Source of the DNA: Candidatus Bathyarchaeota archaeon
GTDB lineage: Archaea; Thermoproteota; Bathyarchaeia; Bathyarchaeales; Bathycorpusculaceae
Assembly (NCBI GenBank): GCA_963827165.1
Contig: CAWGZR010000003.1
Span: 224,001-288,000, forward strand
Direction of reading: 5' to 3'
Length of the DNA: 64,000 bases
In this document: piece by piece, positions 2,338 through 21,528 of the stretch
Numbering within the stretch: position 1 is the stretch's first letter
Layout of the letters: every line of letters starts with the position of its first letter
Notes under the pieces: generated by a model
What the model was told of the DNA's origin: nothing
The model's database searches: none
Seen by the model: the letters and a program-made list of their open reading frames with translations, nothing else
Program-made: the position numbers and the translations under genes

Positions 2338-2382
2338 TAATCAACTTCCAATTAGCTCCCTCAATGTTCCTCAATATTTGAC

Positions 2383-3045
2383 TCATTTAAGTAGACTCAT
2401 AGATTTTTGATTAAGAATGTTTTTCATTTCTTGACTTGGAAAAATGATCAATATGCATTTGGCGTTCTCGTTTTGTCTTTTGAACCTTGTATCAAAAATC
2501 AAAGCATTCTGGGAAAGCATTGATTGTTTTATCAGAAAGAAATCGATGACTGTATTGAAAGTATCTACTGTGCTTTGGGGCGTCGTTGGAAAAAGACCAA
2601 CTTGAATGAAATCCGATATTGCTGTCAAGAAAGCGCCTATCAGAATGTTAGCGAGTTCACAGATGGCAGACGTCTCTATTTCTGGAGTTAATTCTTCAAT
2701 TGAAGCAGCAAAAGTCATCATAGCAGCAATTTTCTTCGCTTCACTTAATTCGAAAGCTAAAAGAAGGTCGCATCCGTACTTTTCGGAAAGTTGCATGTAA
2801 ACCGCTTCTATAGGCATATCGTGCATATCGAAAAACTGCGGAATCAAATGCGGCTGAATGTTTCGTATTTTTGGAACCTCGATGGTTATCTGTTGTTGAA
2901 GAATTTCCGACAGCGCAGTTGCTGCATGGCCAGCTCCGATACTTCCAAGCTCCAAGAGAATGCCTAAATCTAATTCAGGTTTATCTGAAGACGCGGAGGT
3001 ATCTGAGTAATCTTTCGTTTGTGTGATTCTGATTTGTTGGTTCAT
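2383..3045 (-). CDS. cheC: CheY-P phosphatase CheC
   Basis: ELGSIGAGHAATALS and AICELANILIG repeats typical of CheC. Confidence 0.9.
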   Translation of the reverse strand: MNQQIRITQTKDYSDTSASSDKPELDLGILLELGSIGAGHAATALSEILQQQITIEVPKIRNIQPHLIPQFFDMHDMPIEAVYMQLSEKYGCDLLLAFELSEAKKIAAMMTFAASIEELTPEIETSAICELANILIGAFLTAISDFIQVGLFPTTPQSTVDTFNTVIDFFLIKQSMLSQNALIFDTRFKRQNENAKCILIIFPSQEMKNILNQKSMSLLK

Positions 3046-3668
3046 AGCTTTCTAGTTTCCCCATTAAAACACTTTATAGTTACTACGCCTGATCTAACGT
3101 CGAAACTTATCCTCCGACCATGTGAGCCGCCAACATCCTCGCCTCTAAGTCGTACATTATATTTTGAAAGCACCGTCTTTACTGCTCTTACATTTTTGCC
3201 GCCTATATCTAAATATTCGGAATTTAGATTAGCAAACATATTTGCCCCGCCGGCTATTTTAGCAAAAAGGCACGATTCTTTCTCGTTCTTTTTCCGTATG
3301 CCATTTACCAGCGCGGGAATCGCTGTATCAGCATATTTTGATGGAAGAGGTTCGTTTGCCATGTCTCCAGAATATGGAAGCATTACGTGAGCTAACCCCC
3401 CACATTTATGCAGCGGATCATGTACACAAATTGCTACGCATGACCCGACGCTTGTTAATAGCTCAACGGATCCGCTTTCCACTTTCATGTCTGCCATGTC
3501 GACTCGAACCTCTTCCACCTTTGGCGCTGTGTTAGCTTCAATCGTTATGCATGATGCTGGTTCCAACTGCTCATAGGCAAATGCGGGTTTATTTCTGTTA
3601 GGAACGTTAATTGTTAATTTATTGTTACAGCAGCCTTCGAGGGATGAAACCATCCGGGGTAGCCTCAA
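3042..3668 (-). CDS. cheD: Chemoreceptor glutamine deamidase CheD (true start may be downstream)
   Basis: GSCVAIC, GGLAHVMLP, KIAGGANMF, IGGKNV, EDVGGSHGR motifs. Confidence 0.93.
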   Translation of the reverse strand: MRLPRMVSSLEGCCNNKLTINVPNRNKPAFAYEQLEPASCITIEANTAPKVEEVRVDMADMKVESGSVELLTSVGSCVAICVHDPLHKCGGLAHVMLPYSGDMANEPLPSKYADTAIPALVNGIRKKNEKESCLFAKIAGGANMFANLNSEYLDIGGKNVRAVKTVLSKYNVRLRGEDVGGSHGRRISFDVRSGVVTIKCFNGETRKL

Positions 3669-4033
3669 CAGTACCTTGAAAGTGCTTCTATTACTTTTTG
3701 AGGTTGAAAGGGTTTTATTACGAAGTCCTTTGCGCCCGACTTAATCGCTTCGACTATTAGGGATTGCTGACCCATTGAACTGCACATAACTACCTTGGCT
3801 GATGGATCCGCAGCGACGATCTGTTTGAGTGCTTCTATACCGTCTTTTGCTTTTGGGCCAGGAGGCATGATAATATCCATTAGAACCAAGTCTGGTTTTG
3901 ACTCTTGATATCGGATTATAGCTTCGTCACCTGATCCGGCTTCGGCGATAACTTCATGACCTGCTTGTAGCACTATTTTTTTGAGAACTGCCCTCATGAA
4001 AGAAGCATCGTCTACTATCATTATTGTGCCCAT
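3665..4033 (-). CDS. cheY: Chemotaxis response regulator CheY
   Basis: Stand-alone receiver (VDD, DIIMP, KPF) heading the cheDCRA operon. Confidence 0.92.
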   Translation of the reverse strand: MGTIMIVDDASFMRAVLKKIVLQAGHEVIAEAGSGDEAIIRYQESKPDLVLMDIIMPPGPKAKDGIEALKQIVAADPSAKVVMCSSMGQQSLIVEAIKSGAKDFVIKPFQPQKVIEALSRYC

Positions 4034-4281
4034 TATGTTCGCCCTTGATGTATCTTAAGACTCAAGACAATTATATAAAAGGATTACGTAGTAAAACACT
4101 TCATTGTCAACCAATATATCACATACTTAGCGTTAATCGCTGTTTTAGCCATACCCGTAAGAGAAAAATGATACACTCTTAAAACATGGAGTCTGAATTC
4201 AGATTTCTAAGTCGTAATTATATTATATATAAATGATCAGTATTGGGGGTAGCAATACGGAAAAGGAGAACCCCCAAACAA

Positions 4282-5166
4282 ATGACACTTGCATTGGAAA
4301 AACAGGTATTAACAAGAGTTTATGATAAAGAAAAGGAAACCTTCAGGCTGATAAAGAAAGACCAAACATACAACGACCATCTGTCAACAATCGAAGAAAC
4401 ACTTTCGCGGTTTGGTCTGTTAAAAAACGAGATCAAAGTTTACATGTATCTTGCTAGAGCCGGTGAAATGAAGGCAGGCGAGATAGCAGAAGCAATTTCA
4501 CTTCATAGGACAGAAACCTACAGGATCCTGAGAGACTTAGAGAAGAGAGGTGTCGTGTTTTCTATTTTTGAGAAACCACTAAAATTCACAGCTGTTCCGC
4601 TTGAAAAAGCTATCGATTTGCTGGTGGATGCGCAAAAAATCAAGATCAAGCTGTTGGAGCAAGAAAAAGAAAGCGTAGTAAAGCTTTGGCAGTCAATGCC
4701 TCAACCGAAAGTCGCGACCGCAAAAAAAGAGCTCTTTCAAATGCTCGAGGGCGAACAACAGGTGCTTATGAAGGCGGATGAATTGCTTGGAAGATGCGAA
4801 AAAGAATTCCAGGTCTTCGCCGCGGGGGATTACCTTGCACAGCTGTATTACAGTGATTTCTCAGATAAGCTGAAGATTTACGCGGATAAAGTTAAAGTTA
4901 CGTTAGTCAGTGACACTTCGATTAAAAGTGCGTATTTCCTAGGTCAATTGAAATGGCTTAGCGATTCAGAGCGGATCGCCGATGACCAAAACCTGCCCTG
5001 CTTCATGATATGTGACAATAAAGAAGTCTTGATCGTATTTCACGAAAAAGAAAGAACCAATGATGAAGAATCAAAGAAAAAAGATAAGACTGCAGCAATA
5101 TGGACAAACTACGGGGCATTCATCAATGTTCTCGGAATGCTATTCTCAAAACTATCAGAAGCATGA
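4282..5166 (+). CDS. TrmB-family transcriptional regulator
   Basis: N-terminal wHTH FGLLKNEIKVYMYL...LHRTETYRILRDLEKRG. ATG at 4282 preferred over TTG at 4243. Divergent from cheY. Confidence 0.85.
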   Translation: MTLALEKQVLTRVYDKEKETFRLIKKDQTYNDHLSTIEETLSRFGLLKNEIKVYMYLARAGEMKAGEIAEAISLHRTETYRILRDLEKRGVVFSIFEKPLKFTAVPLEKAIDLLVDAQKIKIKLLEQEKESVVKLWQSMPQPKVATAKKELFQMLEGEQQVLMKADELLGRCEKEFQVFAAGDYLAQLYYSDFSDKLKIYADKVKVTLVSDTSIKSAYFLGQLKWLSDSERIADDQNLPCFMICDNKEVLIVFHEKERTNDEESKKKDKTAAIWTNYGAFINVLGMLFSKLSEA

Positions 5167-5275
5167 ACGATTCAGTGATATCTGAGACCCTATTTCTTTT
5201 CTTTATCGATTAATTGAACGATGCAGTCAACCATTTGAAGGTTGAACATGATAAAAAATCAGACCTTTCAAAGGC

Positions 5276-6250
5276 TTACGCAGTTATTTCCTGACAGTCA
5301 ACAGTTTCTACCCATCTTTTTCCTGCATCCGTTAACTGTTTGCGGAACTCTGGAGTTGGAATCATAAGCAAGTACCCGTTTGCAGAACTTTCGTTTCTGT
5401 TGAATTGCATTTTGAAAATCAAGGCAGATTTCGCCAGAATCAGTTGTCTAGCCAAAAAAACATCGATTATAGCTTCGAAGTAATCGCTGAAAACGTTAGG
5501 CCTCGAAGGAACAATCGTTAATTCGGCAAAATTTGCAATAGAACTGTAAAAGGCACAAAGCATTATGGAGCCCATTTCCTGAACGGCTGACATGGCGATG
5601 TCCTGACTCACGGGTGTTGATTCACTTGTCATTAGGGACGCAATCTTCTTTACCTCTTCAGAATCAAAGACGATTAAAGTGTCGCAACCGGGTTCCGTCG
5701 CTAAAGCCATGTGAACTGCTGTCACCTGACTGTCGGGTGCGCCGATGAGTCTGGCAATTAGATGTAGCGGCCCAGTTTCAAGTTTTGGAACGCTTATTTG
5801 AATGGGTTGTTTGGTCAACTTTGATAGAACCGTTGCGGCATGCCCAGCGCCTATGTTTCCAATCTCGGTGAGCACTCGCAGATCGGTACAGAGCGCTAGC
5901 GATTCTAAGAGTTTCTCTGGTTCAAAGGGCTTGACTACGAAGGCTTTTGCGCCGGCTTTCATCGCTTCATTGATCAAGCTGTTTTCATCTAACGCGCTGC
6001 AAATGATTACTTTGGCTTGTGGATCCTCTTTCATTATTTTTTTCAAGGCATCAAGGCCAGTTTTTGCGATTTTTCCTTCGTTCATCACGATGTCTAAAAG
6101 CAGAATCTCGGGTTTAAGCTGCAGATACTTTTCAATAGCCTCGTCTCCGTTGGATGCCTCTCCAATTACGTCGTAACCCGATTCTTCAAGAATTCTTTTC
6201 AGAAGAGTTCGCATATACGTATTATCGTCTGCTAAGAGGATGGATGTCAT
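5276..6250 (-). CDS. CheY-like receiver fused to a CheC phosphatase domain
   Basis: Residues 1-120 receiver (ADD, DIVM, KPF), then TEIGNIGAGHAATVLS CheC domain. Confidence 0.9.
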   Translation of the reverse strand: MTSILLADDNTYMRTLLKRILEESGYDVIGEASNGDEAIEKYLQLKPEILLLDIVMNEGKIAKTGLDALKKIMKEDPQAKVIICSALDENSLINEAMKAGAKAFVVKPFEPEKLLESLALCTDLRVLTEIGNIGAGHAATVLSKLTKQPIQISVPKLETGPLHLIARLIGAPDSQVTAVHMALATEPGCDTLIVFDSEEVKKIASLMTSESTPVSQDIAMSAVQEMGSIMLCAFYSSIANFAELTIVPSRPNVFSDYFEAIIDVFLARQLILAKSALIFKMQFNRNESSANGYLLMIPTPEFRKQLTDAGKRWVETVDCQEITA

Positions 6251-7831: not shown

Positions 7832-8590
7832 TCATTCAGTGCATGTTACATTTGCCGCGACAACTATCCCTCGTTGATCCTGACAGACAGCTGACACATG
7901 AAGAGGGAAAAATAATTGATCTGTTTCAGAATTAAATGACACTGAATATGTTCCGCTCCCGAAATCATTGACGATTGGCGAATTCACTTTTGTCCATGTT
8001 TCGGCTGCGTTTTCGTAGTAAAAAGAAAGGTTTTGGGCTAAAGCGGGCGAGCCTTCATTTTGCATTTTGACGGTCAAGTTCACTTGCGTCGAGTTTTCCA
8101 GTTGAAGGGAGCTTCCACTCAGATTCAATTCTGATGTTACGTTAACTACATATTCGGATGTGGACGTTGAGGTAGTCGCAGTTGACTCAATTTCTACAAG
8201 AATACATGCACTCGATATCCCTTCCCCGTTTGCACCCCATGAAATGCACATGCCGTTCTGATATGGAGCATCGGTTGAGAGAATGAAATTTGTTTGAAGT
8301 ATAGACTGGTATGAATTGGAAGCGATTTCGGATTTTAGTTCGTCCAAGTCTGTTGTCAACGCGTTGGGGCTGCCGCCGTTGGTCACGTTTGCTAAAGCAC
8401 TGATCAGGGTGTTTCTTGCGGCTTGCTGGTAGGTTGAGAAAATGCTGGTTGTGTCGGTGGCATCTGTTGGAACATCTTTTTCGGTTTCAATAATAAAGAT
8501 GGCTGTTGAAAGCAGAACCAATGCCACCATTAAGGCGGTTATTACAATAACTTGACCCGAGTTGCTGCGTCTGAAATTGCGGCTTTTCAC
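7832..8590 (-). CDS. Minor pilin-like protein (class III signal peptide)
   Basis: RRSNSG|QVIVITALMVALVLLS, located in the T4P operon. Confidence 0.75.
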   Translation of the reverse strand: MKSRNFRRSNSGQVIVITALMVALVLLSTAIFIIETEKDVPTDATDTTSIFSTYQQAARNTLISALANVTNGGSPNALTTDLDELKSEIASNSYQSILQTNFILSTDAPYQNGMCISWGANGEGISSACILVEIESTATTSTSTSEYVVNVTSELNLSGSSLQLENSTQVNLTVKMQNEGSPALAQNLSFYYENAAETWTKVNSPIVNDFGSGTYSVSFNSETDQLFFPLHVSAVCQDQRGIVVAANVTCTE

Positions 8591-9015
8591 GGAGACCCAA
8601 CCTGTGATAGCTGCAATTGAAGAATGTAGATTGAATAGGTACTACTTTCGCTGGCGCAGACGTAGTCAACTGAGACAATTTTGTCATTGACGTACCCCCC
8701 GTTTGAGATAGGAAATATGTTCAGCGGCTTCATATTTTTGTCAAAGACTGTCAGATTGAACCAGGTCGTTAGAGGAAGGGCGGAACCAATAGAGTTTTCG
8801 AGGGCATTCCAGTCACGGTCATCAATTAAAGTCCCCAGATGCCCGTTGCTGTCTAAACTTTGCAGAACATTTTGGGCGGTTGAAACAAGGTTCTCCTTGG
8901 AATCTTGAAAAGTGGGTTGGGCAGGAATAACTGCGAGGCAGGAAACTAACAATACAGATGCCAAAAAAGCTTCTATTACTCGAACCACTCCTCTTTTATC
9001 GTCCATCAGCCTCAA
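8587..9015 (-). CDS. Minor pilin-like protein (class III signal peptide)
   Basis: DKRG|VVRVIEAFLASVLLVSCL, overlapping start/stop with neighbours. Confidence 0.75.
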   Translation of the reverse strand: MRLMDDKRGVVRVIEAFLASVLLVSCLAVIPAQPTFQDSKENLVSTAQNVLQSLDSNGHLGTLIDDRDWNALENSIGSALPLTTWFNLTVFDKNMKPLNIFPISNGGYVNDKIVSVDYVCASESSTYSIYILQLQLSQVGSP

Positions 9016-10058
9016 GAAGCAGATCCTCCTAAACTTATCTCAAGCTTGTACAGAACGCCGTTTATGGTGACATCGTAGCTGAACACGTTTTGTGCTGAAC
9101 CTGAAAAGTCAGACCCTGAGGTGAATGGAACTTCAGGGTAAGAAACCCACTGTTGAAAATGCGAGCTGTTCTCTACGCCTTCAACAACTATGATTAAAGG
9201 GCTTTTGTCAACTATTTCAGGAATTGCGCAACCCAAGGCACCTGATGTGTATTCTAGTGCTTCCTGATGAGCATAGGAGAAGACATAGCAGTTTTGGATT
9301 ACGGCGCCAGAAGAGTTTGTGGCAATGTTTAGGAAGTAGTTGAGGGGGCTTAAAGTCAAAAAGTCACTTGTGGGCGATGTCTCTTGAGTTGAGTTGGACA
9401 GGTCGTAGACTGCATAAGAAGTAACTCTCTCGTCAAAGAACGCCCTAGCAAAAACGAATACTGTGGCGTTGTTTGACGCTGTATTGGGAATTTGAACTGT
9501 GACTTGATCAACTCCACCGTTTGAAGTGCTACTTGTCACATTGCTAACGGCCGTATCTGATACAACGTAGCAGTTTAGAATGGCGCTTACAGGTTGAGAT
9601 TCAATGCTTGTCGAAATCCCTAGAGTAAAAAATGCACCATAAATTGTAGAGACGTTAGCCGATTCTGTAATATCTATGTCCATGACTTGAGAAATTTTGA
9701 CTCCCAACGCAATATTATCTAGCTTGCTTGAGGTTTCCATATCAAGATACGAAAGGGAACAGTTGTTTAAACTGTTCAGTCTAGAGATTTTGTCAATGTC
9801 CACTGCATATGGAATTGTGGAAGAGCTTGCCGCTAATCCAAAATCAGTTGGGTTGCTGCCGCTTGTTCCCCAGTTGCTTGGGGTTCCAGGGTTTGTTACG
9901 ATGTGGTTTGCTATGGCTTGTAGGTAGTTTTGTTCGTTTATGTTTTGGGTATTGTCTATTCGGACCTGCATTGTTGAGCATAGGTAGCCGGTAGCTATCA
10001 GAGCTGCAGCAACTATGATTGTGCATGCGAAGAAAGTGTCAAAAGAGCTCGTTGGCAA
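9012..10058 (-). CDS. Pilus-associated/minor pilin-like protein
   Basis: N-terminal hydrophobic helix, 'NPGTPSNW' motif, S/T/N-rich body, directly after the platform gene. Confidence 0.65.
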   Translation of the reverse strand: MPTSSFDTFFACTIIVAAALIATGYLCSTMQVRIDNTQNINEQNYLQAIANHIVTNPGTPSNWGTSGSNPTDFGLAASSSTIPYAVDIDKISRLNSLNNCSLSYLDMETSSKLDNIALGVKISQVMDIDITESANVSTIYGAFFTLGISTSIESQPVSAILNCYVVSDTAVSNVTSSTSNGGVDQVTVQIPNTASNNATVFVFARAFFDERVTSYAVYDLSNSTQETSPTSDFLTLSPLNYFLNIATNSSGAVIQNCYVFSYAHQEALEYTSGALGCAIPEIVDKSPLIIVVEGVENSSHFQQWVSYPEVPFTSGSDFSGSAQNVFSYDVTINGVLYKLEISLGGSAS

Positions 10059-10072
10059 TCATTATTTCTCCC

Positions 10073-11617
10073 TTAGCTTGGTCCTACGTTCGGATTCAAT
10101 CCCATTTGGAGTGGGTTGAATGTTTTTGCCAGTAACATTTGGGATAACACTAGGGACACGTACGCAACCGAAGCCAGTATAGCTGCGTGCTTGAATCCTG
10201 CGCCCAAGTTGCCTTCGCTGATTTTGCCTATGAAAAATCCTGAAATCCAACATTGGATGATTATTCCAACGGAAAACGTTCCAAGTTGGCTTTGCATCAC
10301 TGAAGTGGTTGATGCTAAGACACTGCTACTTACCACGCCAGAGATCATGTTTGCTGTAAATGCTACTATTACTGTGGTAACTGCGATTAATACGCTCCAC
10401 ATAAGGGCAAGAAGCACATATGGCTTCAATAGTTCACGGCGGTTAATCTGAAGTTCTCGTTCTTTTTCGCTATATTCCGCAAGTATTTCAAGTGACTGGA
10501 TAGAGTTCCCGCCGACTTCTATGGTTTCAACTACCATGGCGAAGTTAATTATGACAAACCAGCTACGAATTTTAGTGCGCAAGTTATCAAAAGTCTTTCT
10601 TAGAGGAATACCCCACTCTATTTGACTGCGCATTAGATCCAGAAATTTTGAGAATGATCCGTAGTCCTTCCTTTTTGTGGCTTGAATGATACTTTTCTCA
10701 GGGGAAAGACCTGCTTTCTGGGACTCGGATATGTTTCGAATGAACGCTGGAATTGAATCTTCAGCATTATAGTTTATTTTGGAAATTTGACGGTATTGAA
10801 TAGCAATCGGCACTGAAGAAGCGACCAAGCAAATAGTGGTAACTTCAGGTAACCCTATTGGGCCTAACCCTTTCGATAATGAAGGAAGCAACCCAAAAGC
10901 ACCTATCACCGCAAAAGCAGGAATCACAAACATCAACGCTTTTTTATAAAGGTCTTTCAAGTTTGGGAAAGCACTTTTTTGCATGCTGTGAGCCATCAAG
11001 ATGAAGAGAACGGACATGAAGGGGAGCAAGATGAATGCTATTAAGTAAGAAATCGTAGGTGAAATGGAGACGGACATTCCCCCCGTGAGTGCACCAATGT
11101 TTGAAGCTGATAGAACGACAAAGAGAATGTATGTGCATAATACGACTATTAGCATAACCGAGTATGCTTCAACCAGAGTTACAATCCTCTCTATTGAGCG
11201 GTTGAGACCGTTAGTTCTTAGCTCAAAGATTTCTTTTAGCTGGCTTTTCATGTAATCGACTAGTTTTCCGCCGCTTCTAATTGATGAGACAAATCCGCCG
11301 AGGAAATTTCTGTACTGCTTTGACACCGTAGTTTCTGCCCGAAGCTGCATGACTGTAAGGGGATCTTTGCCTAGAACCTCGACTTGGCGAATAATTTCCT
11401 CTGCTTCTTTTTTGAACCACGGAAGGAACGAGAGTTTTCGCATTTTCTTCCAACTGTCATATGGGGAGACTCCGCTTGCAGCTAAAAGAGTAAAAACAAT
11501 CAATGCAAATGGGAGTTCCGATTCAGTTTTTTCTTTTTCTTCGCTTCCAGCTTTTGAGATGGATCCGAAAAGCTTGCCGATAAATCCGCCAGGCACCTTC
11601 ATCTCAGGATTCCTCAT
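10073..11617 (-). CDS. Type IV pilus membrane platform (TadC/PilC/ArlJ family, two T2SSF domains)
   Basis: Multi-pass membrane protein with duplicated T2SSF-like domains, downstream of the ATPase. Confidence 0.9.
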   Translation of the reverse strand: MRNPEMKVPGGFIGKLFGSISKAGSEEKEKTESELPFALIVFTLLAASGVSPYDSWKKMRKLSFLPWFKKEAEEIIRQVEVLGKDPLTVMQLRAETTVSKQYRNFLGGFVSSIRSGGKLVDYMKSQLKEIFELRTNGLNRSIERIVTLVEAYSVMLIVVLCTYILFVVLSASNIGALTGGMSVSISPTISYLIAFILLPFMSVLFILMAHSMQKSAFPNLKDLYKKALMFVIPAFAVIGAFGLLPSLSKGLGPIGLPEVTTICLVASSVPIAIQYRQISKINYNAEDSIPAFIRNISESQKAGLSPEKSIIQATKRKDYGSFSKFLDLMRSQIEWGIPLRKTFDNLRTKIRSWFVIINFAMVVETIEVGGNSIQSLEILAEYSEKERELQINRRELLKPYVLLALMWSVLIAVTTVIVAFTANMISGVVSSSVLASTTSVMQSQLGTFSVGIIIQCWISGFFIGKISEGNLGAGFKHAAILASVAYVSLVLSQMLLAKTFNPLQMGLNPNVGPS

Positions 11618-13196
11618 TTGAAGCTTCTTTAACGGCTAACTCTGCAAGGTTGAGTGAGCTGTTTAACGCTTTGTGCACGCTTCTGAAGTCTCGGAGGTTT
11701 TTACTGACCATGTTTAGAAGGATCTGTTTTCTTCGTTGAAACTCTTCTTCAACTACGCTTAAGGGTGCATCTAGATTCTTTGCGATTTTATTGAACAAGT
11801 AGCTCTTGTCGAGGGTTTCCTGGAATGTGTCTGTTGAAATGTTCCAGCTGAACACTTCAAGGGGAAGGCCGCTGTCGGTAATTTCAGCAATTTTAACGAA
11901 TTTTCGTGAAGAAACCTTTCTTTCTTGAAGGTTGATGCTTTGGGTTTTGACTTGCTTAACGACTATGACACAATTCATCAGCGAGAGAATGTTCTGTGGA
12001 ATGTTCATAGGAGGCTGCGTGAGCCTTTTTATGACCGTATCCACATCGTCAGCATGCATAGTGCACATTCCACCGTGGCCTGTAGCTAAAGCCTGGAAAA
12101 GCACGTATGCTTCTTCGCCTCTAATTTCGCCTACAAGAATCAAAGCTGGCCTATGCCTTACGGCTGACTTTATCAAGTCATAAAGTGTGACTTCTCCCGT
12201 GCTGTCCCCACCGAAACCAGTTCTCGCAATCGTTGAAACCCAGTTTTCTTGCGGCAAGTTGATTTCTTGGACTTCCTCAACGGAAACCATCTTGAAATCT
12301 GGACGTACCAAGCATGCAATGGCGTTCAACGCGGTTGTTTTTCCAGCGCCTGTTGGACCCACGATCATTACTGACATTTTGTTTTCCATCAGCATCCAGA
12401 GATAAGCGGCGATTGACTCGTCGATTGTTTCGTTCATAATTAAGTCGACTATGGTTAGAGGGTCATCTTTGAATTTTCTGATGGTGAAGCTGGTTCCTGC
12501 TGGGGTTGTTTCTTTTCCGAATGAAACTGCGAGCCTGTGCTTTCCGGGAAGAGTCAAATCAACTATGGGATGCGCTATGCTAACATGTTTCCCTTGCCTG
12601 TGCACAATCCGTGTTATGAAGTCGTCAAGTTCTTCCTCTTCTGTAAAAATGATGTTGGTTCGTGCGTTAGCGTATTTTCTATGATAAATGTATACGGCTT
12701 TGTTTATGCCCAAGACACTTATGTCTTCTATTTGCTGGTCACAAATCAGACCATCTATTTTTCCGTAGCCGATCAAATCTTTTTCGAGATAATAAATTAT
12801 TTTTTTTATGCCTACGTGGTTAGCTCCTTCGAAGGCTTTTTGATGTTCTTCAATAATTGTTGGAAGTTGCCTATGGAACGAGTCAACCAGAGTTTCATCA
12901 AATCGTGGCGCTTTGAGTTCATACTCTAATATGTTCTTTAGTTGGTTGTATGACTCCCGCTCTTCTCGAGTAAGCGTCAGTTCGTCGACTGCATAGAAGT
13001 AGCTGCCCTCGGATTCGTCTTGGAAGATCCAGGCATAAGAGAACGGCGGATTAAGAGGGTAACTTTCAACTTCAACGTAACCCTCAGGCACCTTATAGCC
13101 TTGAATACCTAAGTATGCCACAAGTTCCTCATCGGAAGTTTTAACTTTCGCTTCCTCTTCATCCCGTTTCTTTTTTCCCAATTTCATTTTCATCAT
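11604..13196 (-). CDS. Type IV pilus assembly ATPase (VirB11/TadA/ArlI family)
   Basis: Walker A GPTGAGKTT, VSVEEVQEI Asp box, LVGEIRG Walker B, TGHGGMCTMHA His box. Confidence 0.95.
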   Translation of the reverse strand: MMKMKLGKKKRDEEEAKVKTSDEELVAYLGIQGYKVPEGYVEVESYPLNPPFSYAWIFQDESEGSYFYAVDELTLTREERESYNQLKNILEYELKAPRFDETLVDSFHRQLPTIIEEHQKAFEGANHVGIKKIIYYLEKDLIGYGKIDGLICDQQIEDISVLGINKAVYIYHRKYANARTNIIFTEEEELDDFITRIVHRQGKHVSIAHPIVDLTLPGKHRLAVSFGKETTPAGTSFTIRKFKDDPLTIVDLIMNETIDESIAAYLWMLMENKMSVMIVGPTGAGKTTALNAIACLVRPDFKMVSVEEVQEINLPQENWVSTIARTGFGGDSTGEVTLYDLIKSAVRHRPALILVGEIRGEEAYVLFQALATGHGGMCTMHADDVDTVIKRLTQPPMNIPQNILSLMNCVIVVKQVKTQSINLQERKVSSRKFVKIAEITDSGLPLEVFSWNISTDTFQETLDKSYLFNKIAKNLDAPLSVVEEEFQRRKQILLNMVSKNLRDFRSVHKALNSSLNLAELAVKEASNEES

Positions 13197-13636
13197 TCAC
13201 CTGACAAAGTTAAGCTGACGGTTTTGTTTACACAAGAGCATTGCAAAAGAGGCCTGCCGTAAGTACTAATGAAAGCCCCTGAAGCGACTACCTGGGCTGG
13301 TATGCAGACGCCTGACGGATTCAGGTTGACTGTTGATCCAAGTCCTGAGCCAACCCATGCTCCAGAAGAATCGTTTGCAATGCAGATCCAATAAACTTGG
13401 TTTCCCACTTGGGTTGGCAGATCCAAATATTGCGTTACATTTTCGTTGTCTTGAGTTACGTGCGAAAGAATAAGGAGACTTTGTGTGGCAACGTATTGTT
13501 CAATGTTTGTCAATTGCTGGCTTTCCGCTTCGTTTTTTACGTTTGCCGTGGCGAGGCAGCAGCTTGCGACGATAATGACTCCTACTATAAGCGAGGCAAA
13601 CAAAGAATAAACCCATCCTGGAATTATCGACGGCAT
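13193..13636 (-). CDS. Minor pilin-like protein
   Basis: N-terminal hydrophobic helix, 'LDLPTQVGNQVYWICI' pattern of archaeal pilus accessory proteins. Confidence 0.65.
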   Translation of the reverse strand: MPSIIPGWVYSLFASLIVGVIIVASCCLATANVKNEAESQQLTNIEQYVATQSLLILSHVTQDNENVTQYLDLPTQVGNQVYWICIANDSSGAWVGSGLGSTVNLNPSGVCIPAQVVASGAFISTYGRPLLQCSCVNKTVSLTLSGE

Positions 13637-13639
13637 TGT

Positions 13640-14479
13640 TTACGGTGTGTCCTCCTCGACTGATACGTTGGAAATGACAATCTGAACGTGAATAATCGCA
13701 CCAGCGGGAGTGCTCGAAATCGGCACAGAAACCTTTCCAAATATACCATTCAATTGCGAAGTAACTACAAAGTTTTCAGTTTGATGGTTAATTTGGTAAG
13801 TTGCAGTTGTCATCTGGGCACTTAAGCAAGAGATCTTCAGCGGAAGCTCTCCACACAACGAAAGTGGTGTCGACGAATTCAAGTTAACAATGTAAATGCG
13901 AATGTCTGTTACTGCTTGACCGTTTTCTGTTCCAGCAGGTGCATAGGTTAATTCCGGTCGGTATCCTAAATGGATTTGAGGCCCCTGTAAGCTGCCTGCA
14001 ATGAAAAGCTGGCTTGTTGATGAGCCACTTTGGTTCGTAATTGCGCTGCTATCGCCTTCGATGTAGAATCCTAAGTCGGCTGATTGTGAAGGAGGTAGAT
14101 CATATACGATTTGGCCCATATTTGAGTTGAAGATGGTTTCGTTGGTTCCTGCGTTCTCTAAAACACTCAACATCAAATTGTTAGAAGATGGTTGAATGTT
14201 TATCTGTCCGCCTGAATCCCGGAAGTCAAGGACGGATGCTGACCCTGGCTGAGAAATTACAGACAAGATGTTGTTATCTAAAGAAGTCATATCTTGTTGT
14301 GCAGTTAACACTTGCAAAGACTGCTGCCGATCGTTGACCTGCTGAACGGCAAACACGTAAGTTACCGATATCAAAAGCAAAGTCGAAACGAAGAGAATCA
14401 GGTAAGTTACAGGTACAGCTAACGCTTTGCTGGAATGAAGGAAACGGGGATGCGTGTGTTTCCGCGAAGTCACCGTCAA
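13640..14479 (-). CDS. Minor pilin-like protein (class III signal peptide)
   Basis: SSKA|LAVPVTYLILFVSTLLLISVTY followed by an amphipathic helix. Confidence 0.72.
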   Translation of the reverse strand: MTVTSRKHTHPRFLHSSKALAVPVTYLILFVSTLLLISVTYVFAVQQVNDRQQSLQVLTAQQDMTSLDNNILSVISQPGSASVLDFRDSGGQINIQPSSNNLMLSVLENAGTNETIFNSNMGQIVYDLPPSQSADLGFYIEGDSSAITNQSGSSTSQLFIAGSLQGPQIHLGYRPELTYAPAGTENGQAVTDIRIYIVNLNSSTPLSLCGELPLKISCLSAQMTTATYQINHQTENFVVTSQLNGIFGKVSVPISSTPAGAIIHVQIVISNVSVEEDTP

Positions 14480-14917: not shown

Positions 14918-15349
14918 ATGAGAGTTGAAAGCTTTGAAGCAATGACTAAAATCGTAATCGCGCTTTTTGTTTCCGTTCTATTTCTCCACGTCGTAGCAGC
15001 TTTGTTAACCTACATTACTGTCAGCTCAGGCAGGTACGTTGAAGGCAACCCAACCACTGCAATGCTCCAAATTAGATATGGCTTAACTGACGGGTTAATG
15101 TTGACCTTACTCCAGGGAGCGCTATTGTCAATAATTCCTTTAATGACCTACATAGGATCATTAAAATATGCACAATCAAACCTTGTGCCGCCGTTCGAAA
15201 AAGCGGGCCTTTTGCAGATGGTAAAATACTTCTTTTTTCCCTTAGCCATTTCCGTTTTGGTTTATCTTACTTTGATAGCTGGGGCAGACGTTATCCACGA
15301 CTTAGCCATTGTTTTTAGCAACGGACACCTAAACTTGTGGAGTTTTTAG
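14918..15349 (+). CDS. Small integral membrane protein (EGNP motif, DUF5658-like)
   Basis: 3-4 hydrophobic helices, LTY...VEGNP motif. Confidence 0.55.
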   Translation: MRVESFEAMTKIVIALFVSVLFLHVVAALLTYITVSSGRYVEGNPTTAMLQIRYGLTDGLMLTLLQGALLSIIPLMTYIGSLKYAQSNLVPPFEKAGLLQMVKYFFFPLAISVLVYLTLIAGADVIHDLAIVFSNGHLNLWSF

Positions 15350-15638
15350 AAACAAAAAACCGCGGCAAATGAACATCAAAGAAGCCCACTATTGTATTCA
15401 CAGTTTTTGTTCGCCACAATCTGTAGCCGGAAAGTTTGCCAAATAGTTATCGATAACTTGATTTCCCGACATTTAACTCGAGGGATTGAACCTATATGTT
15501 TGATGTCATTGCAGAATAATAATCATAAAATTAATGACCGCGTGCTGTGTAAAAGGAAGTTTTCTATTATTTAAACAAAAAAAGAAAGTGGGGGGATTTT
15601 GTGGGGGTAGATTATATTTATGGATATTTAATCTACGA

Positions 15639-16231
15639 CTACGGATTGTACGCTTGGACGTTGGCTTCTTGGTAGTACATTGCTTGTGAAGTGAACACAG
15701 TGATTCCAACAGTTAAGCCAATGTCGTTAATTGTAATGCTGTCTGGGCAAACGACATAGACGGTCATGGTATCGCCAGATTTCAAAGTGATGTCGCCTGA
15801 GGCTGGGGATTGCCAGTTGCAGCTGCAATATTTGCGGCTGCAGAAACGCCTGTATCTCCAGAAGTGCCAGGCACATATAGAAGGTCGGTGGTTACGGTGA
15901 GCTACCTCGAAATAGATGGTGAGGCCGAAGATCTGCGGTTTGTCCTCTGACTGTGATTTTAGTTATAACAACGTCTCGTCCGCCAGTGTTAATTATCACA
16001 AAAGCCGCCTCAGGGGGTGTAACGCCAGTCTTATCCTCGATAGTTCCTTGTGGAACACCATACGTGGAGGTATTCAAGCGATAGACTTTCCTCTTGAACA
16101 CGTGTGCTAGTAACGTTGATTGCGTAGTAAGTGACGACGCCTGCGAGAAGCACTGAAACCACTAGAATAATCAATGTAGTAACGACTGTACTTAAAGCCA
16201 AACGATTCTTCAGTATATTCTTCATTTTCAT
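15639..16231 (-). pseudogene. Major pilin paralog A1, frameshifted (about 4 indels in variable segments; real or consensus artefact)
   Basis: MKMKNILKNRLA|LSTVVTTLIILVVSVLLAGVVTYYAINVTSTRVQEESL, then ...AAFVIINTGGRDVVITKITVRGQ..., then LKSGDTMTVYVVCPDSITINDIGLTVGITVFTSQAMYYQEANVQAYNP*, read across different frames. Confidence 0.85.
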
Positions 16232-16301
16232 TTTATTTTTCACTTGAAAAAACAAATCCGCAAACTAAAGATAAGTAAACTTGTGCATACAAAAAAAGAC
16301 A
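16232..16301. repeat. 70-bp upstream region duplicated at 17218-17287
   Basis: Identical tttatttttcacttgaaaaaacaaatccgc...gcatacaaaaaaagaca ahead of pilins A1 and A2. Confidence 0.9.
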
Positions 16302-16623
16302 GATAAAAACGAAAGAAAACTTTTTGAAATAATAAACTCTCAGTCTTTATTGATTTATTCAGTTTGTAGTGTTTCCTTGGGTTTAAACTGATATCATCCA
16401 ATGCTCCTGCTAAACTGAATTTCATAAGCCATGCATCGGAGTTTTCTTACAAGATACGATAATAGATCAAGTTGCTGATTCCTAAGCCATGTTACCCTTC
16501 AGATTCACATCCAAAAAACTATTCAGAGTTAGAACTAAGATCATTTATATTTGAAAAATTAAATTTATTATAAAAAGAAAAAGAAGGTGGGGGGTTTTTG
16601 TTGAATTGGAACTTCCTTTTAGC

Positions 16624-17217
16624 TTATGCGGCTTGGACGTTTGCTTCTTGGTAGTACATTGCTTGCGATGTGAACACAGTGATTCCAACTGTTAAGCCAA
16701 TGTCGTTGATGGTGATGCTGTCTGGCATTGGATGTAAGCAATCATGTGTATCGCCAGAATGAAGGGTTAATGTCGCCAGCTCCGGCGGTCAATTAACATG
16801 GTAGAGCTGTTATGACCCTGCTACCGAGACATTCAGCGATAGCATCGGCGGTTCATATTGTAGGTCAGCTGAATGAAGCTGTTAAGGTAGTAACTGGGTG
16901 ATATACCGGTAGTCCACAGCACCAAAGTCAGCGGTTTGTCCTCTGAATTGGATTTTATTTATAACCACGTCTCGTCCGCCAGTGTTAATTATCACAAAAG
17001 CAGCTTGAGCGGGATTACCACTGGTGGGGCCACCCGATGAAGTGACCAACGTGTAGGTATGTCAAGATAGACTTTCCTCTTGGACACGTGTGCTTGTAAC
17101 GTTGATTGCGTAGTATGTGACGACGCCTGCGAGAAGAACTGAAACCACTAGAATAATCAATGTAGTAACGACTGTACTTAAAGCCAAACGATTCTTCAGT
17201 ATATTCTTCATTCTCAT
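16624..17217 (-). pseudogene. Major pilin paralog A2, frameshifted (not in ORF track)
   Basis: MRMKNILKNRLA|LSTVVTTLII...QEESLS, QAAFVIINTGGRDVVINKIQFRGQTADFG, PDSITINDIGLTVGITVFTSQAMYYQEANVQAA*. Several indels in and next to the variable segments. Confidence 0.85.
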
Positions 17218-17300
17218 TTTATTTTTCACTTGAAAAAACAAATCCGCAAACTAAAGATAAGTAAACTTGTGCATACAAAAAAAGACAAATAAAAAAGAAA

Positions 17301-17324
17301 CAAAAAAGGGGTTTTTCAAACCCC
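17301..17324 (-). terminator. Putative terminator after pilin B1
   Basis: GGGGTTT-N3-AAACCCC hairpin followed by an oligo-T tract on the minus strand. Confidence 0.55.
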
Positions 17325-17340
17325 ATCCGCTATTTTAGTC

Positions 17341-18006
17341 TTAGTCAGCTTGTACGTTGCATTCTTGGTAGTACATTGCTTGTGCCGTGTAGATAGTTAT
17401 GCTGACTGTTAAGCCAATGTCGTTAATAGTAATGCTATCAGGATTAACGATGTAGAGCAGCATTGTATCACCCGATTTCAGAACCAAATCAGTTGAGGCG
17501 TAGCTAAATACGAATCCACCAGTGGTCACTGTGCCGCCAAGTAGACTAAATTGCTGTCCTGCAGGTGTTGTTGTGAGAGGGTCGGTTCCCGGTTGTACCA
17601 TAGTAGGCTGGAAGTACATGTCAGTTTGTATAGGCGAACTGGTTACTGAGTCCACTACAAATTGAGCGTCGTGAGTCGCGTCTACGAAGGATGACCATGC
17701 TGCGTCTTGTCCTCGGATCTCGATCTTCGTGATGACGACGTCTCTACCGCCAGTATTAATAACCTTAACAGAAGCCTGAGAATAAATTGCACTTCCTGCT
17801 GCTTGTCCTGGGTTGAGCCAAATGTGCGCGTCACTCAATGAAAGGCTTTCTTCTTGAACCCGTGTGCTAACGACGTTGATTGCATAGTAGGTGACGACTC
17901 CTGCCAAAAGCACGGAAATAACGAGAATAATTAGTGTTGCAACGACCTCGCTAAGAGCGTACTTGTTTTTCATGAATCTTTGGAAAGAATTGTAGTTGAG
18001 CTTCAA
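17341..18006 (-). CDS. Major type IV pilin paralog B1 (intact)
   Basis: Class III signal KNKYA|LSEVVATLIILVISVLLAGVV, INTGG motif, GGAGGTGA SD. Confidence 0.9.
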   Translation of the reverse strand: MKLNYNSFQRFMKNKYALSEVVATLIILVISVLLAGVVTYYAINVVSTRVQEESLSLSDAHIWLNPGQAAGSAIYSQASVKVINTGGRDVVITKIEIRGQDAAWSSFVDATHDAQFVVDSVTSSPIQTDMYFQPTMVQPGTDPLTTTPAGQQFSLLGGTVTTGGFVFSYASTDLVLKSGDTMLLYIVNPDSITINDIGLTVSITIYTAQAMYYQECNVQAD

Positions 18007-18201
18007 TTGTATTTTTCACCTCCCGCTATAGTGAAAAGCGATGAGTTTCTGATACCTGTGAATTTTTGATGTTTAACGTATGAACCCACCTTTAGTCATG
18101 CAGTTAGGCGGTTTCATTATAAATCTCTTCTGTAGCACGATTTAAGATACGGCGTACATGTCGAAAATAAGGTAGCACAAGCCAACTTCACAATATGAAT
18201 T
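18007..18201 (-). promoter_or_regulatory. About 195-bp upstream/promoter region duplicated at 19365-19555
   Basis: Near-identical sequences with SD GGAGGTGA, BRE/TATA GAAGAGATTTATAAT and two GTAGCAC direct repeats 40 bp apart. Confidence 0.8.
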
Positions 18202-18673
18202 CCAAATCACACGGCTTAAGGAAAATTGTGGACTATTGTCTTATATGAGTAGACTTCTCACGTTCATATTTTACTTACCCCAGATGATTTTTAGCTGTTA
18301 TCAATGTTTGTACGTCTTTTTTCCTTCAATCACAACAGCTTTAAAAAATCATTGAACTTTTTTTTAACGCCGGTGTTTCATCTGTTGCGTCAAACAGACG
18401 GGACTTTAGAAATCTTTGAAAAAGGCCCTGCCCTCTAAGCTGCTTCCGTAAACTCAAAATATCTTTGCAACGGAACCTTTCAATCTCTTTTTCAATCGAC
18501 CGCACTTCCTAAACGAGTTTTCGTTTCATCTGCAGACTAACAAGTGTCGAACGAAAACTAAGTTGTCTTTTAAATTTTGTTTCGATTAAGTTAAAAAAAA
18601 CAGATAAGGTAAAAATGGGGTTCTAATGCCCCCATACTCTGGACCATTTTGCGTTATGCGGTTTTTATTTTGC

Positions 18674-19364
18674 TTAGTTGGCTTGGACGTTGCATTCTTG
18701 GTAGTACATTGCCTGCGCAGTGTAGATGGTTATACTGACGGTTAAGCCAATGTCGTTGATGGTGATGCTGTCAGGATTGATTATGTAGAGCAGCATTGTG
18801 TCACCTGATTTGAGAACCAAGTCAGTGGTGGCGTAGTTGAAGATGATATTCCTCCGGCGGTTAGATGCTGGTGCAGTCGTTGCTAGCTAAGACCTGTTAA
18901 GGCCTGCATAGATTGGTTCTGTCTGGCTGCTGGGTCAGCTGTTGGGATTGCCATAGACTAGCCTTGGAAGTACATGTCAGTTTGTATAGGTGAATTAGTT
19001 ACTGAATAGATAACGAATTGACTGTCTAATGGGCACTGTCTGCCCAGGATGACCATGCGGCGTCTTGTCCTCGGATCTCAATCTTAGTGATGACGACGTC
19101 TCTACCGCCAGTATTAATGACCTTAAAAGAAGCCTGAGAATAGGTTGAACTTCCTGCTGCTTGACCTGGGTTGAGCCATATGTGCGCGTCACTCAAGGAA
19201 AGGCTTTCTTCTTGAACTCGTGTGCTAACGACGTTAATTGCGTAGTAGGTGACGACACCTGCCAAAAGCACTGAAATAACCAGGATAATTAGTGTTGCAA
19301 CGACCTCGCTAAGAGCGTACTTGTTTTTCATGAATCTTTGGAAAGAATTGTAGTTGAGCTTCAA
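18674..19364 (-). pseudogene. Major pilin paralog B2, disrupted in the variable segment
   Basis: First ~105 aa almost identical to B1. C-terminus FNYATTDLVLKSGDTMLLYIINPDSITINDIGLTVSITIYTAQAMYYQECNVQAN* intact. Stops and indels only between about 18850 and 19030. Confidence 0.85.
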
Positions 19365-19712
19365 TTGTATTTTTCACCTCCCACTATAGTGAAAAGCGAT
19401 GAGTTTCTGTACCTTGAATTTTTTGTTTAACGTATGAACCCACCTTTAGTATAGCAGTTAGGAGGTTTCATTATAAATCTCTTCTGTAGCACGATTTAAG
19501 ATACGGCGTACATGTCGAAAATAAGGTAGCACAAGTCAACTTCACAATATGAATTGTGAATTAGGCAGATAAGACGGATGGAATGGTTCTTGTTTGCGCC
19601 ATGAGCACAGAGGTTTGGCTAGGCTTAGAGTACTGCTTTTTGCTGAAGGAAAATGTAGTTTGAAATATTGATTTAGCCTTCATAAATGATATGGTCAGCA
19701 TATGCGTAACTT

Positions 19713-21381
19713 GTGGTTGCAGCTGTTAGAAGTATGCCTCCCACAAAGAAACTTCGCAGAAAGAATCTATCACTGATCATGATCTTAGCGCTAATTCTTA
19801 CGCCCATTGCGTTGGCGGCAACATCCAGCACCCAATCGGGCCCAGTCCAGTTGACGACAACAACTGAGTATACTAATTACGTGCATAACTTCGTCGGTCC
19901 TTTGGGAAACTGCACTTATATTGAAAAACCAATGTTCCCCGTGTTGATCAAGAACAATCAAATCGCGATTGGCGGAAACTGGACAATAATCTGTCCGCTG
20001 GAAGAGGGCCACAACTACCATATCTATTTCTACGGTTCCTACATAAACATGACCTCGGTTGCAAAAACCGACTATAATCTTTATGTCTACGATCCGCAGG
20101 GAAAACTGGAAAGTTGCCATACCCAATCAGCGGGTCTCCCTGAACACTTGGGTACAAATGTCAGCACCCCTCTCTTTACGCCTTTGTTTACGGGCAACTA
20201 TACGTTTGTCATAAACAATAACCTGGTTGATAGTGAAAGCGCTCAGGAAGCCACATTCATGATTATGGAAAACCTGCAGACAAACCAATGGTATTCCACT
20301 TACATGGTGGGTGCAAACTGCAACAGTCCTACATTCCTAACGAATTGGGCTTACGAATTTGAAACCAATGCGTCAACAGTTGATTTGTATGTAAAAGTTC
20401 CAAACACACTGGACATGTACGAGGCCAGACTTTATTTGATGAACAATGCGCAAAGCCCAACTTTAGATGATTTTCCGCTGCCTTGGGAAGCCGGCTTGTA
20501 TGGCAATTTGAGCAGCCCGGTCGGCGGCTACAACTTTGAACCCAACAGCTATAGAGGCGTGGCCTATGCAAGCTGCGAGTACATGGGACAGCCAATGTTC
20601 CTCAATTACACTTCGCCCAATAAAGGAGCCAACCTCTACCAGCTAGTGCTCATGGCCGAGGTAGGTTCAGGAAGCATATCCTTTATGATTAAAACCGACT
20701 TTGAAAATGCCACTTTGAGTCCGGTTATAATTCCAAGTAAGGTAGTCCCTAACAACGCAACCCAAGTTGCCTTCACATCACCTAACGATACTTTGGCGTC
20801 GGCTCAGCTGTCCTATTCCTTGGACAACTGGAACAGCAGCAACACAGTTGACATGCAGGTTAGCAACCAAACATGCAGCGGCATCATTCCAGGCCAAAAA
20901 CTTGGGGCATTTGTGCAATACAGAGTTAATGCAACCGACATACTGATGAACAGCTTGGAAGCTTCGGGCAGCTACATTGTGAAGGAAACTCCAGCGTTTA
21001 ACATCACGATCGCCAAAGATAAAATAATGCTTGGGCAAAATGTGGAAGTGCAAGGAGCCATAACGCCATCGCCACTTTCAAACGACTCAATGGTTTTTGT
21101 TAGGTTCGCGTCTACCGATACCGTCAGAACTCTAAATTGCACACTCAAAGCCGACGGCACCTTCGATGCCAACTGGAAGCCAAACTCGTCGGGGGTATGG
21201 GTTGTATCGGCGAGTTCAAGCGAGACCCAGGTGACCTTTGCGGCTGACAGCCAATCTTTAACCTTAACGGTTGACCCGGCAGCCCCTCTACGTCAGGTAC
21301 TCTCTTTACCTAATAATCGGGTTCGTGGCCCTTTGCGCAATTGGGGGAGTCTCTTACTTCATAAGTTCAAGACGAAGCTAA
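19713..21381 (+). CDS. Secreted surface protein with Ig-like C-terminal domain and TM anchor (+1 frameshift near 21278)
   Basis: Signal peptide. The alternative frame gives QPLYVRYSLYLIIGFVALCAIGGVSYFISSRRS*, a TM anchor. The ORF-track tail beyond this point is likely spurious. Confidence 0.7.
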
Positions 21382-21528
21382 CCTCAAAAATAGCTTTTTT
21401 GATTTCTGGATTCACTTCGATTTTTGAAAATGGAATAAAAGGAATAGGCATTAAGCGCAACCAGCCCGTTAGATCAATAAAAAGCCTTATCTGATATTGA
21501 ACATTATTTTTTGGAGGGATGAAAACCT

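Follow-up and report, generated by a model that had tools for sequence, protein, structure and literature searches.

A tandem array of four pilin paralogues heading a Bathyarchaeial type IV pilus operon probably evolves as a recombining multigene family

The pilin genes of Neisseria combine one expression locus, pilE, with silent, promoterless and 5'-truncated pilS cassettes; a G-quadruplex motif lies beside the expression locus, and variable segments are passed into the expressed copy by high-frequency, non-reciprocal transfer. We analysed a tandem array of four pilin-like genes from the Bathyarchaeia, which are abundant and uncultured archaea, and compared it with this and other described systems. 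The array lies on the minus strand at 15639-19364 of a 64,000-nucleotide stretch of DNA (the window), corresponding to C3:224001-288000 within the 3.13-Mb, 14-contig assembly of an uncultured soil archaeon. A first-pass annotation of the window had correctly reported four tandem copies at these coordinates and had proposed that they have a cassette architecture of constant and variable segments, in which recombination between the constant blocks might shuffle surface loops as in pilE/pilS. Our results indicate that the four paralogues head a type IV pilus operon and probably evolve as a multigene family, not as a programmed switching system.

Like pilE/pilS, the array has a type IV pilin product and several gene copies; its variable surface segments are bordered by conserved sequence, and recombination takes place in the conserved portions. 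It differs in that all its copies appear, from their sequences, to be complete transcription units, and in that the conversion observed affects the conserved blocks and not the loops. Searches of the whole genome by tblastn and blastn returned no orphan or promoterless cassettes, only a complete paralogue on C11, and a regular expression for four runs of at least three G with loops of 1-7 nt found no G-quadruplex motif on either strand of 15001-20000.

The closest described evolutionary pattern that we found is the lpl cluster of Staphylococcus aureus, in which tandem paralogues have been diversified by recombination at a conserved region (Tsuru & Kobayashi 2008, PMC2568036). In both cases the paralogues stand in tandem in the same orientation with conserved tracts inside each open reading frame (ORF), the phylogenies of different segments disagree, and strains differ by rearrangements and copy number. 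The lpl genes come from another organism and protein family; their conserved tract is central and their ends vary, whereas in the pilin array conservation extends over the ends and two internal blocks, and the loops are the variable part. Archaeal major pilins "are prone to tandem duplications" (Makarova, Koonin & Albers 2016, PMC4858521), and a 2026 survey (PLoS Genet, PMC13705601) reports multiple pilin genes per system, with subsystem 4A and Aap-like systems in Bathyarchaeota. The accessible portions of these two articles describe no segmental gene conversion, cross-species sharing of loop types or strain-level change in copy number, and in the accessible text of the survey, supplements aside, the terms "gene conversion" and "tandem" each occur 0 times. 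Full-text searches of a literature holding a minority of the subscription journals, supplements aside, likewise returned no paper describing gene conversion within archaeal pilin arrays or an exchange of their loops. A multigene family shaped by gene conversion and unequal crossing-over is of an ordinary kind, and we did not find one described for archaeal pilins in the literature searched.

The four genes are transcribed in the order B2, B1, A1, A2, two B-type copies being followed by two A-type copies (Table 1). Their division into two pairs was borne out: B2 and B1 share 89% mean column identity over 959 columns, about 190 nt of upstream DNA included, while for A1 and A2 the figure is 85% over 779 columns, and the DNA directly upstream of these two is identical for about 85 nt. 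The alignments and a comparison of the promoter regions thus also confirmed the near-identity of the upstream DNA that had been claimed for each pair. The three constant blocks originally quoted were all present, namely the helix up to QEESL, INTGGRDVVI..K...RGQ and PDSITINDIGLTV...QAMYYQE.NVQA, and the differences between B1 and B2 in the 5' block are indeed mostly synonymous. All 10 differing codons among codons 1-72 are of this kind; codons 1-111 hold 14 synonymous and 7 non-synonymous differing codons, and the last 58 codons hold 18 and 7 (18 of 25 synonymous). B1 encodes 221 residues when read from a TTG, and gene callers choose an ATG that gives 210. The paralogue outside the array, C11:118745-119320, is an intact stand-alone gene about 46% identical to B1, with an A-like helix and loops of its own.

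The family to which these genes belong is large: 2774 of 3438 candidates were homologues at E<=0.001, annotated as "hypothetical" where they carry a name. Matches were obtained in 26 of the 40 relatives searched, and 16 of these 26 hold two or more adjacent copies, as counted from coordinates. Many relatives' matches are split into an N-terminal and a C-terminal piece inside one open frame, the sign of conserved ends and a divergent middle. We then compared 39 loci fetched from relatives (L002-L040). In all 13 loci holding both types the B-type genes lie upstream of the A-type genes; related loci carry 1 to 3 B copies, and metagenome loci carry 2-5 intact copies (three B and two A in L021, one B and three A in L036, at least two B and two A in L019). 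Alignment of 35 B-type proteins showed near-invariant ends and three variable segments, V0, V1 and V2; the invariant columns map to the helix, to the strands at the C-terminus and to the INTGGRD block. Both the constant/variable layout and the B-then-A arrays occur across the order. The layout described in the first pass is real, but because it is family-wide and matches the division between fold core and loops, what was termed cassette architecture is the ordinary pattern of a filament subunit and no peculiarity of this array.

The evidence for recombination came mainly from a close clade comprising window B1, the clean parts of window B2, and genes from L019, L020 (two), L021 (three), L027 and L030. 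Over the first 50 codons the DNA p-distance among the three L021 copies is 0-1.3%, against about 17% to any other genome. The window pair shows a p-distance of 5.3% over the same codons and of 13.3% in the C-terminal block, where B1 and B2 are no closer to each other than to other genomes. A maximum-likelihood DNA tree of the 5' block (5' 285 nt, 10 rows) grouped the genes by genome, with the three L021 copies at 98/99 and the two L020 copies at 97/99, and rejected clades that had been fixed beforehand from the V2 loop type (approximately unbiased test, p-AU 1.4e-9 and 1e-56). A protein tree of the V1-to-V2 region was built from 15 rows, excluding the garbled window B2 and adding six database proteins as representatives of loop types. 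This tree grouped the sequences by loop type and rejected the by-genome clades (p-AU 0.018 for L021 and 6.6e-8 for L020), its inner support being modest, with one of 12 branches starred.

Nei-Gojobori estimates of synonymous (dS) and non-synonymous (dN) divergence returned the same contrast within single genes. The L021 paralogue pairs have a dS of 0.05-0.08 in the constant blocks and of 1.3-1.6 in the variable parts, while constant blocks compared between genomes have a dS of 0.9-2.1 and a dN/dS of 0.02-0.05. In the close clade V1 spans 18-21 codons and V2 36-50 codons. Three V2 types, QQF...GGFVF, TQTLSLLGTG.TNQF and PFG..LTGG...NG.GG.F.F, are each present in both N-terminal lineages (ALSEVVAT and ALSTVVTT). 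The two loops are also uncoupled from one another, since L030_+241 and L021_+3002 have V1 in common (94% nucleotide identity, 19/21 residues) and carry unrelated V2 segments (51% nucleotide identity, 16/40 aligned residues).

Copy number changes as well, as indicated by sequences from four public soil runs, of which X1, X3 and X4 are cited here; these are assembled contigs and not reads, and our interpretation is confined to the parts of the array that they cover. The X3 and X4 contigs join position 18051/18049 to 19424/19420, inside the upstream region shared by the B genes, and the junction skips one B unit of about 1370 nt, leaving a single B copy instead of two. Moreover, an X1/X3 contig carries an A-type gene with a different V0 segment, that of P0121, the closest intact relative found for A1. 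The tree conflict, the dS contrast, the uncoupling of V1 from V2 and the change in copy number show that the array family evolves by gene conversion in its conserved blocks, by unequal crossing-over and by re-pairing of old loop types. The proposal that recombination at constant blocks shuffles loops is thus supported on an evolutionary scale, whereas the programmed, Neisseria-like part of it is not.

A feature of the locus that had escaped the first-pass annotation is that, as assembled, only B1 among the four copies is an open frame. We examined the copies by frameshift-tolerant protein-to-DNA alignment, using for each the three best intact relatives as references. B1 matched L021_+5001 at 181/209 codons with 0 frameshifts. 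The ORF of B2 terminates at a TAG after 112 codons, its C-terminal block is not in the frame of its N-terminal block, and it contains at least two frameshifts; against the intact orthologue P0015, with which 198/216 aligned codons are identical, these fall at 19034 and 18924 and are accompanied by two in-frame TAGs. A2, with 142/180 aligned codons identical to L033_+918, has four frameshifts (16054, 15930, 15899 and 15808). A1 has six frameshifts plus stops both against L038_+397 (142/188 codons identical) and against P0121 (151/195), and the frame joining its two ends contains four in-frame stops, two TGA and two TAA. A search with the open 59-codon stretch of A1 found no near-identical intact version of this gene, P0121 being the closest intact sequence. 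Taken together, A1, A2 and B2 hold at least 12 frameshifts plus stops within about 1.9 kb, all in the variable parts. Part of the strong divergence reported for the middle segments is therefore out-of-frame text, and the variable segments are real in intact relatives.

Two biological sources of such disruptions were rejected. All three stops in B2 are TAG, as would be expected under an alternative genetic code or pyrrolysine usage, but no change of code would open the reading frames: the two ends of B2, like those of A2, are out of frame with each other, and A1 contains both TGA and TAA stops. Phase variation by homopolymer slippage is contradicted by the many lesions per gene and by the affected runs of 2-4 nt, which are too short.

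Neither the short-read contigs of other soil samples nor the intact orthologues show these lesions, and for this reason we regard them, with good confidence, as errors of the assembly consensus where the DNA is paralogous and varies between strains, and not as biology. Over 18672-18948 in B2, the X3 and X4 contigs each differ from the window by 5 substitutions and 6 gaps, and the 1180-nt X1 contig differs from 18172-19353 by 25 substitutions and 12 gaps, whereas the X4 contig over intact B1 (17348-18049) shows 34 substitutions and 0 gaps. In the broken parts the contigs thus diverge from the window mainly through indels. The net length differences, +4 in the 3' half of B2 and -2 in the X1 contig (-1 of it in an intergenic T-run), agree modulo 3 with restoration of the frame. 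In A1 the X4 contig has indels at 16726 (-1), 16730 (+2) and 16745 (-1), and their application to the window replaces the out-of-frame text ahead of PDSITINDIG by the family consensus. Over residues 1-97, B2 and P0015 share 99% identity, and P0015 matches the middle of B2 in hopping frames. All copies are open in metagenome contigs of close relatives (five in L021, four each in L019 and L036, two each in L020 and L022). The seven flanking genes together show one frameshift against relatives, compared with at least 12 in about 1.9 kb of the three copies; this density suggests a breakdown of the consensus at differences between paralogues or between co-occurring strains. Such variants do co-occur in the soil runs: in X4 the single-B form has a depth of 32.6 and the B2-bearing pieces have depths of 2.3-4.4.

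The same data bear on the alternative that A1, A2 and B2 are real pseudogenes of an array decaying to one functional B-type pilin, with no mechanism of variation. The several frameshifts and stops present as assembled would speak for decay, as would the existence of strains with fewer copies (one B copy in X3 and X4) and the stops within copies of some relatives. Natural decay would be far, however, from the observed ratios of gaps to substitutions (6:5 and 12:25, against 0:34 in B1) and from three indels of net zero within 20 nt of A1. In the broken copies both terminal blocks and the promoters are untouched, with mostly synonymous differences, and the B1/B2 codon differences indicate that their conserved blocks are still under purifying selection. 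Decay would also leave the array with no intact A-type copy, while B and A genes co-occur in all 13 informative loci. We therefore consider real decay unlikely.

If the frame disruptions were real, the array might instead be a system of the pilE/pilS kind, in which B1 is expressed and A1, A2 and B2 are non-coding, promoter-bearing donors, recombination at the constant blocks transferring their loop segments to B1; the consequence would be variation of the pilus surface within a population. One intact copy beside three non-coding ones, with clean conserved flanks around the variable segments, has the appearance of such a system, and recombination at constant blocks with re-pairing of loops is seen across genomes. 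Yet the supposed donors retain promoter-like boxes, ribosome-binding sites, start codons and signal peptides, and their orthologues are intact genes in other assemblies. The A copies would moreover be poor donors for B1 because the conserved blocks of the two types differ. The conversion in L021 spared the loops rather than moving them, neither a G-quadruplex motif nor orphan cassettes were detected in the searches described above, and a search of 15000-20000 for Rfam RNA families gave none at E<=1. Since the lesions are also better explained as errors, a switching system of this kind appears very unlikely.

The possibility that the array is a target of a diversity-generating retroelement was rejected too. 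The sole RVT_1 match in the genome (C3:147878-148521) lies about 91 kb away, the only array-similar DNA elsewhere in the genome is the C11 paralogue, so that no template-like repeat was found, and the loops differ in length, unlike the targets of such elements. The RVT_1 match, which is outside the window, is itself split across two open frames by a frameshift or an assembly indel.

A further alternative is that the four-copy array is itself an artefact, either a repeat expanded or collapsed in assembly or a chimera of strains. Local assembly errors do occur exactly here, and sporadic frameshifts are found elsewhere in the assembly. However, the independent X1 contig (18172-19353) runs across the spacer and connects DNA upstream of B1 with B2, the same B-then-A arrays with up to five copies are present in relatives assembled from other data, and the copies differ from one another throughout, as an expanded repeat would not. 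An artefactual array is accordingly highly improbable.

Several points weigh against the interpretation of an intact, recombining multigene family. The contigs of other samples and the intact orthologues on which the assignment of the lesions to assembly error is based could derive from other strains. The confinement of the lesions to the variable parts would also fit real decay of the gene middles combined with conversion of the ends. Stops do occur inside copies of relatives, with two TGA in G010, one TGA each in G011, G038 and G040, and further stops in L016. The independent transcription of the copies is suggested by promoter-like boxes and T-runs; a look for RNA evidence among eight public runs found no RNA run. 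For the loops, dN/dS is 0.1-0.6 at saturated dS and therefore neither shows nor excludes positive selection. Finally, the recombination is compatible either with exchange within a genome or with exchange between strains.

Irregular genes were also observed in other parts of the data set. Truncated or frame-shifted copies of the array occupy L016:3947-7230, and a flanking gene is split at L015:5656-6482; both loci come from highly contiguous metagenome-assembled genomes. In the window, the 593-codon gene of a secreted protein at 19713-21494 (plus strand) shows a frame change near 21283-21308 relative to its L021 homologue (region 21283-21375), residues 30-553 matching in frame 3 and residues 546-576 in frame 1. 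This is probably another assembly indel.

In the interpretation that we favour, four independently transcribed paralogous pilin genes would head the pilus operon. Their constant blocks would be the parts that each subunit needs for processing and filament building, namely the class III signal peptide, the N-terminal helix and the strands of the beta-sandwich core, and the variable segments would form surface loops. Unequal crossing-over would alter the number of copies, gene conversion would repeatedly homogenise the conserved blocks within a genome, and recombination in these blocks would re-pair loop types that may be older than the species carrying them. The outcome would be a diversification of the pilus surface on an evolutionary scale, which might serve adhesion range or escape from viruses. 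The locus indicates that pilus subunits of the Bathyarchaeia constitute a large family with a rigid assembly core and old, exchangeable loop types. The gain, loss and homogenisation of copies by recombination make the pilus surface a likely target of selection, for instance by viruses or for adhesion, and the defined set of loop types can be tracked in metagenomes. The locus also gives reason for caution, as arrays of paralogues that are probably intact may assemble to look like pseudogenes or "silent cassettes".

The identity of the products as pilins was assessed on B1. The translation carries a predicted class III signal peptide, ...FMKNKY-ALSEVVATLIILVISVLLAGVVTYYAINV, with a short charged N-terminus, a predicted cleavage site and a hydrophobic helix; the stretch is nearly invariant in 31 aligned homologues. 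Pfam Pilin_N (PF07790) matched at E 0.0014 with 19.9 bits, under the curated cut-off of 25.2. An AlphaFold model built with the 31-sequence alignment (predicted local distance difference test, pLDDT, 86.2; predicted template modelling score, pTM, 0.77) consists of a helix over residues 2-41 followed by eleven strands forming a beta sandwich. Foldseek against the PDB returned as top match the Iho670 filament of Ignicoccus (5kyh, E 1.2e-4), with further matches to 6w8u (Pyrobaculum arsenaticum), 6nav (Sulfolobus islandicus), 6w8x (S. solfataricus) and 8q30 (Aap of S. acidocaldarius); ranks 1, 2, 3, 5, 11 and 12 are archaeal pilins with E values of 1.2e-4 to 1.4e-3. The TM-scores are low, 0.32-0.38 on the query, as expected when the position of the long helix differs. 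The Aap filament was retrieved by a sequence-profile search of the PDB as well (8q30_A, E 1.4e-4). On the model, the constant blocks correspond to the helix, the strands at 65-86 (INTGGRD...RGQ) and the last strands (170-209), while the loop regions V1 and V2, at about residues 95-104 and 112-153 respectively, are modelled with lower confidence. B1 is thus predicted to fold as an archaeal type IV pilin, in which the constant blocks would be the helix and beta-core strands and the variable segments the loops.

The solved archaeal adhesive pilins (8q30, 6nav, 6w8u and 5kyh) share with the array proteins an N-terminal hydrophobic helix followed by a beta sandwich, the weak profile similarity just mentioned for 8q30_A, and in the array the adjoining T2SSE and T2SSF genes are a further likeness. 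They differ in that identity to the array proteins is 13-16%, that the Pilin_N score stays below its cut-off, and that the array protein has about 200 residues with two long loops, compared with 131-141 residues; the former are solved filaments, the array pilins being predicted from their genes. In one relative (L035:3979-5145), an ORF of 389 residues encodes a B-type pilin whose C-terminal end continues into another pilin-like head domain, one that lacks the N-terminal helix.

Upstream of the genes, each type has its own arrangement of putative expression signals. In B-type genes the box is ATTTATAA, which lies about 125 nt ahead of the ATG and is followed by a conserved leader and the ribosome-binding site GGGAGGTGA; the box is conserved in 8/9 aligned genes (window, L019, L020, L021 and L027), the sequence in L027 being ATTAATAA. 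The box of A-type genes, AAGTTTACTTATC, is found closer to the ATG, at about 45 nt, and is kept with at most one change in 9/9 aligned genes. A promoter-like box, ribosome-binding site, start codon and signal peptide are retained in all four copies, the broken ones included, and a T-run follows each of the four genes. The B-type leader occupies about 95-125 nt of the minus strand, at 18007-18130 and at 19365-19485. Its sequence is shared with L019, L020 and L021 and includes a conserved AAGGTGGGTTCA and TTTTCAC...GGGAGGTGAAAA, with a predicted hairpin covering the ribosome-binding site. A regulatory role of this hairpin was discarded, as RNAalifold predicts stems but compensatory changes occur in 0/20 pairs.

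Table 1. Coordinates in the window of the array genes, their upstream boxes and the neighbouring genes of the pilus operon.
Feature	Position	Strand	Remarks
B2, B-type pilin gene	18674..19364	minus	first in transcription; middle broken as assembled
B1, B-type pilin gene	17341..18006	minus	sole intact copy; full-length ORF
A1, A-type pilin gene	16624..17241	minus	middle broken as assembled
A2, A-type pilin gene	15639..16255	minus	last in array; middle broken as assembled
TATA-like box ATTTATAA	18117..18124	minus	upstream of B1; identical box at 19471-19478 upstream of B2
Promoter-like box AAGTTTACTTATC	17256..17268	minus	upstream of A1; same box at 16270-16282 upstream of A2
Two pilin-like genes	13193-13636, 13640-14479	minus	hydrophobic N-terminal helices in translations; between array and ATPase
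Type IV filament assembly ATPase	11604..13196	minus	Pfam T2SSE, E 6e-33; downstream of array
Platform membrane protein (TadC/FlaJ type)	10073..11617	minus	Pfam T2SSF, E 7.8e-21, two stretches
Three genes, products with hydrophobic N-termini	7832-10058	minus	downstream of array

The genes that follow the array on the same strand are those of a type IV pilus operon (Table 1). The ATPase aligned in a single piece with its L021 and L019 homologues at 90-97% identity, and the two pilin-like genes that precede it are intact relative to the same two loci, the longer one (13640-14479) giving a weak match to DUF7289 (E 0.0026). Chemotaxis genes at 1501-6250 adjoin the operon, their translations resembling CheR, CheC, CheD and CheY, together with a CheY-CheC fusion.

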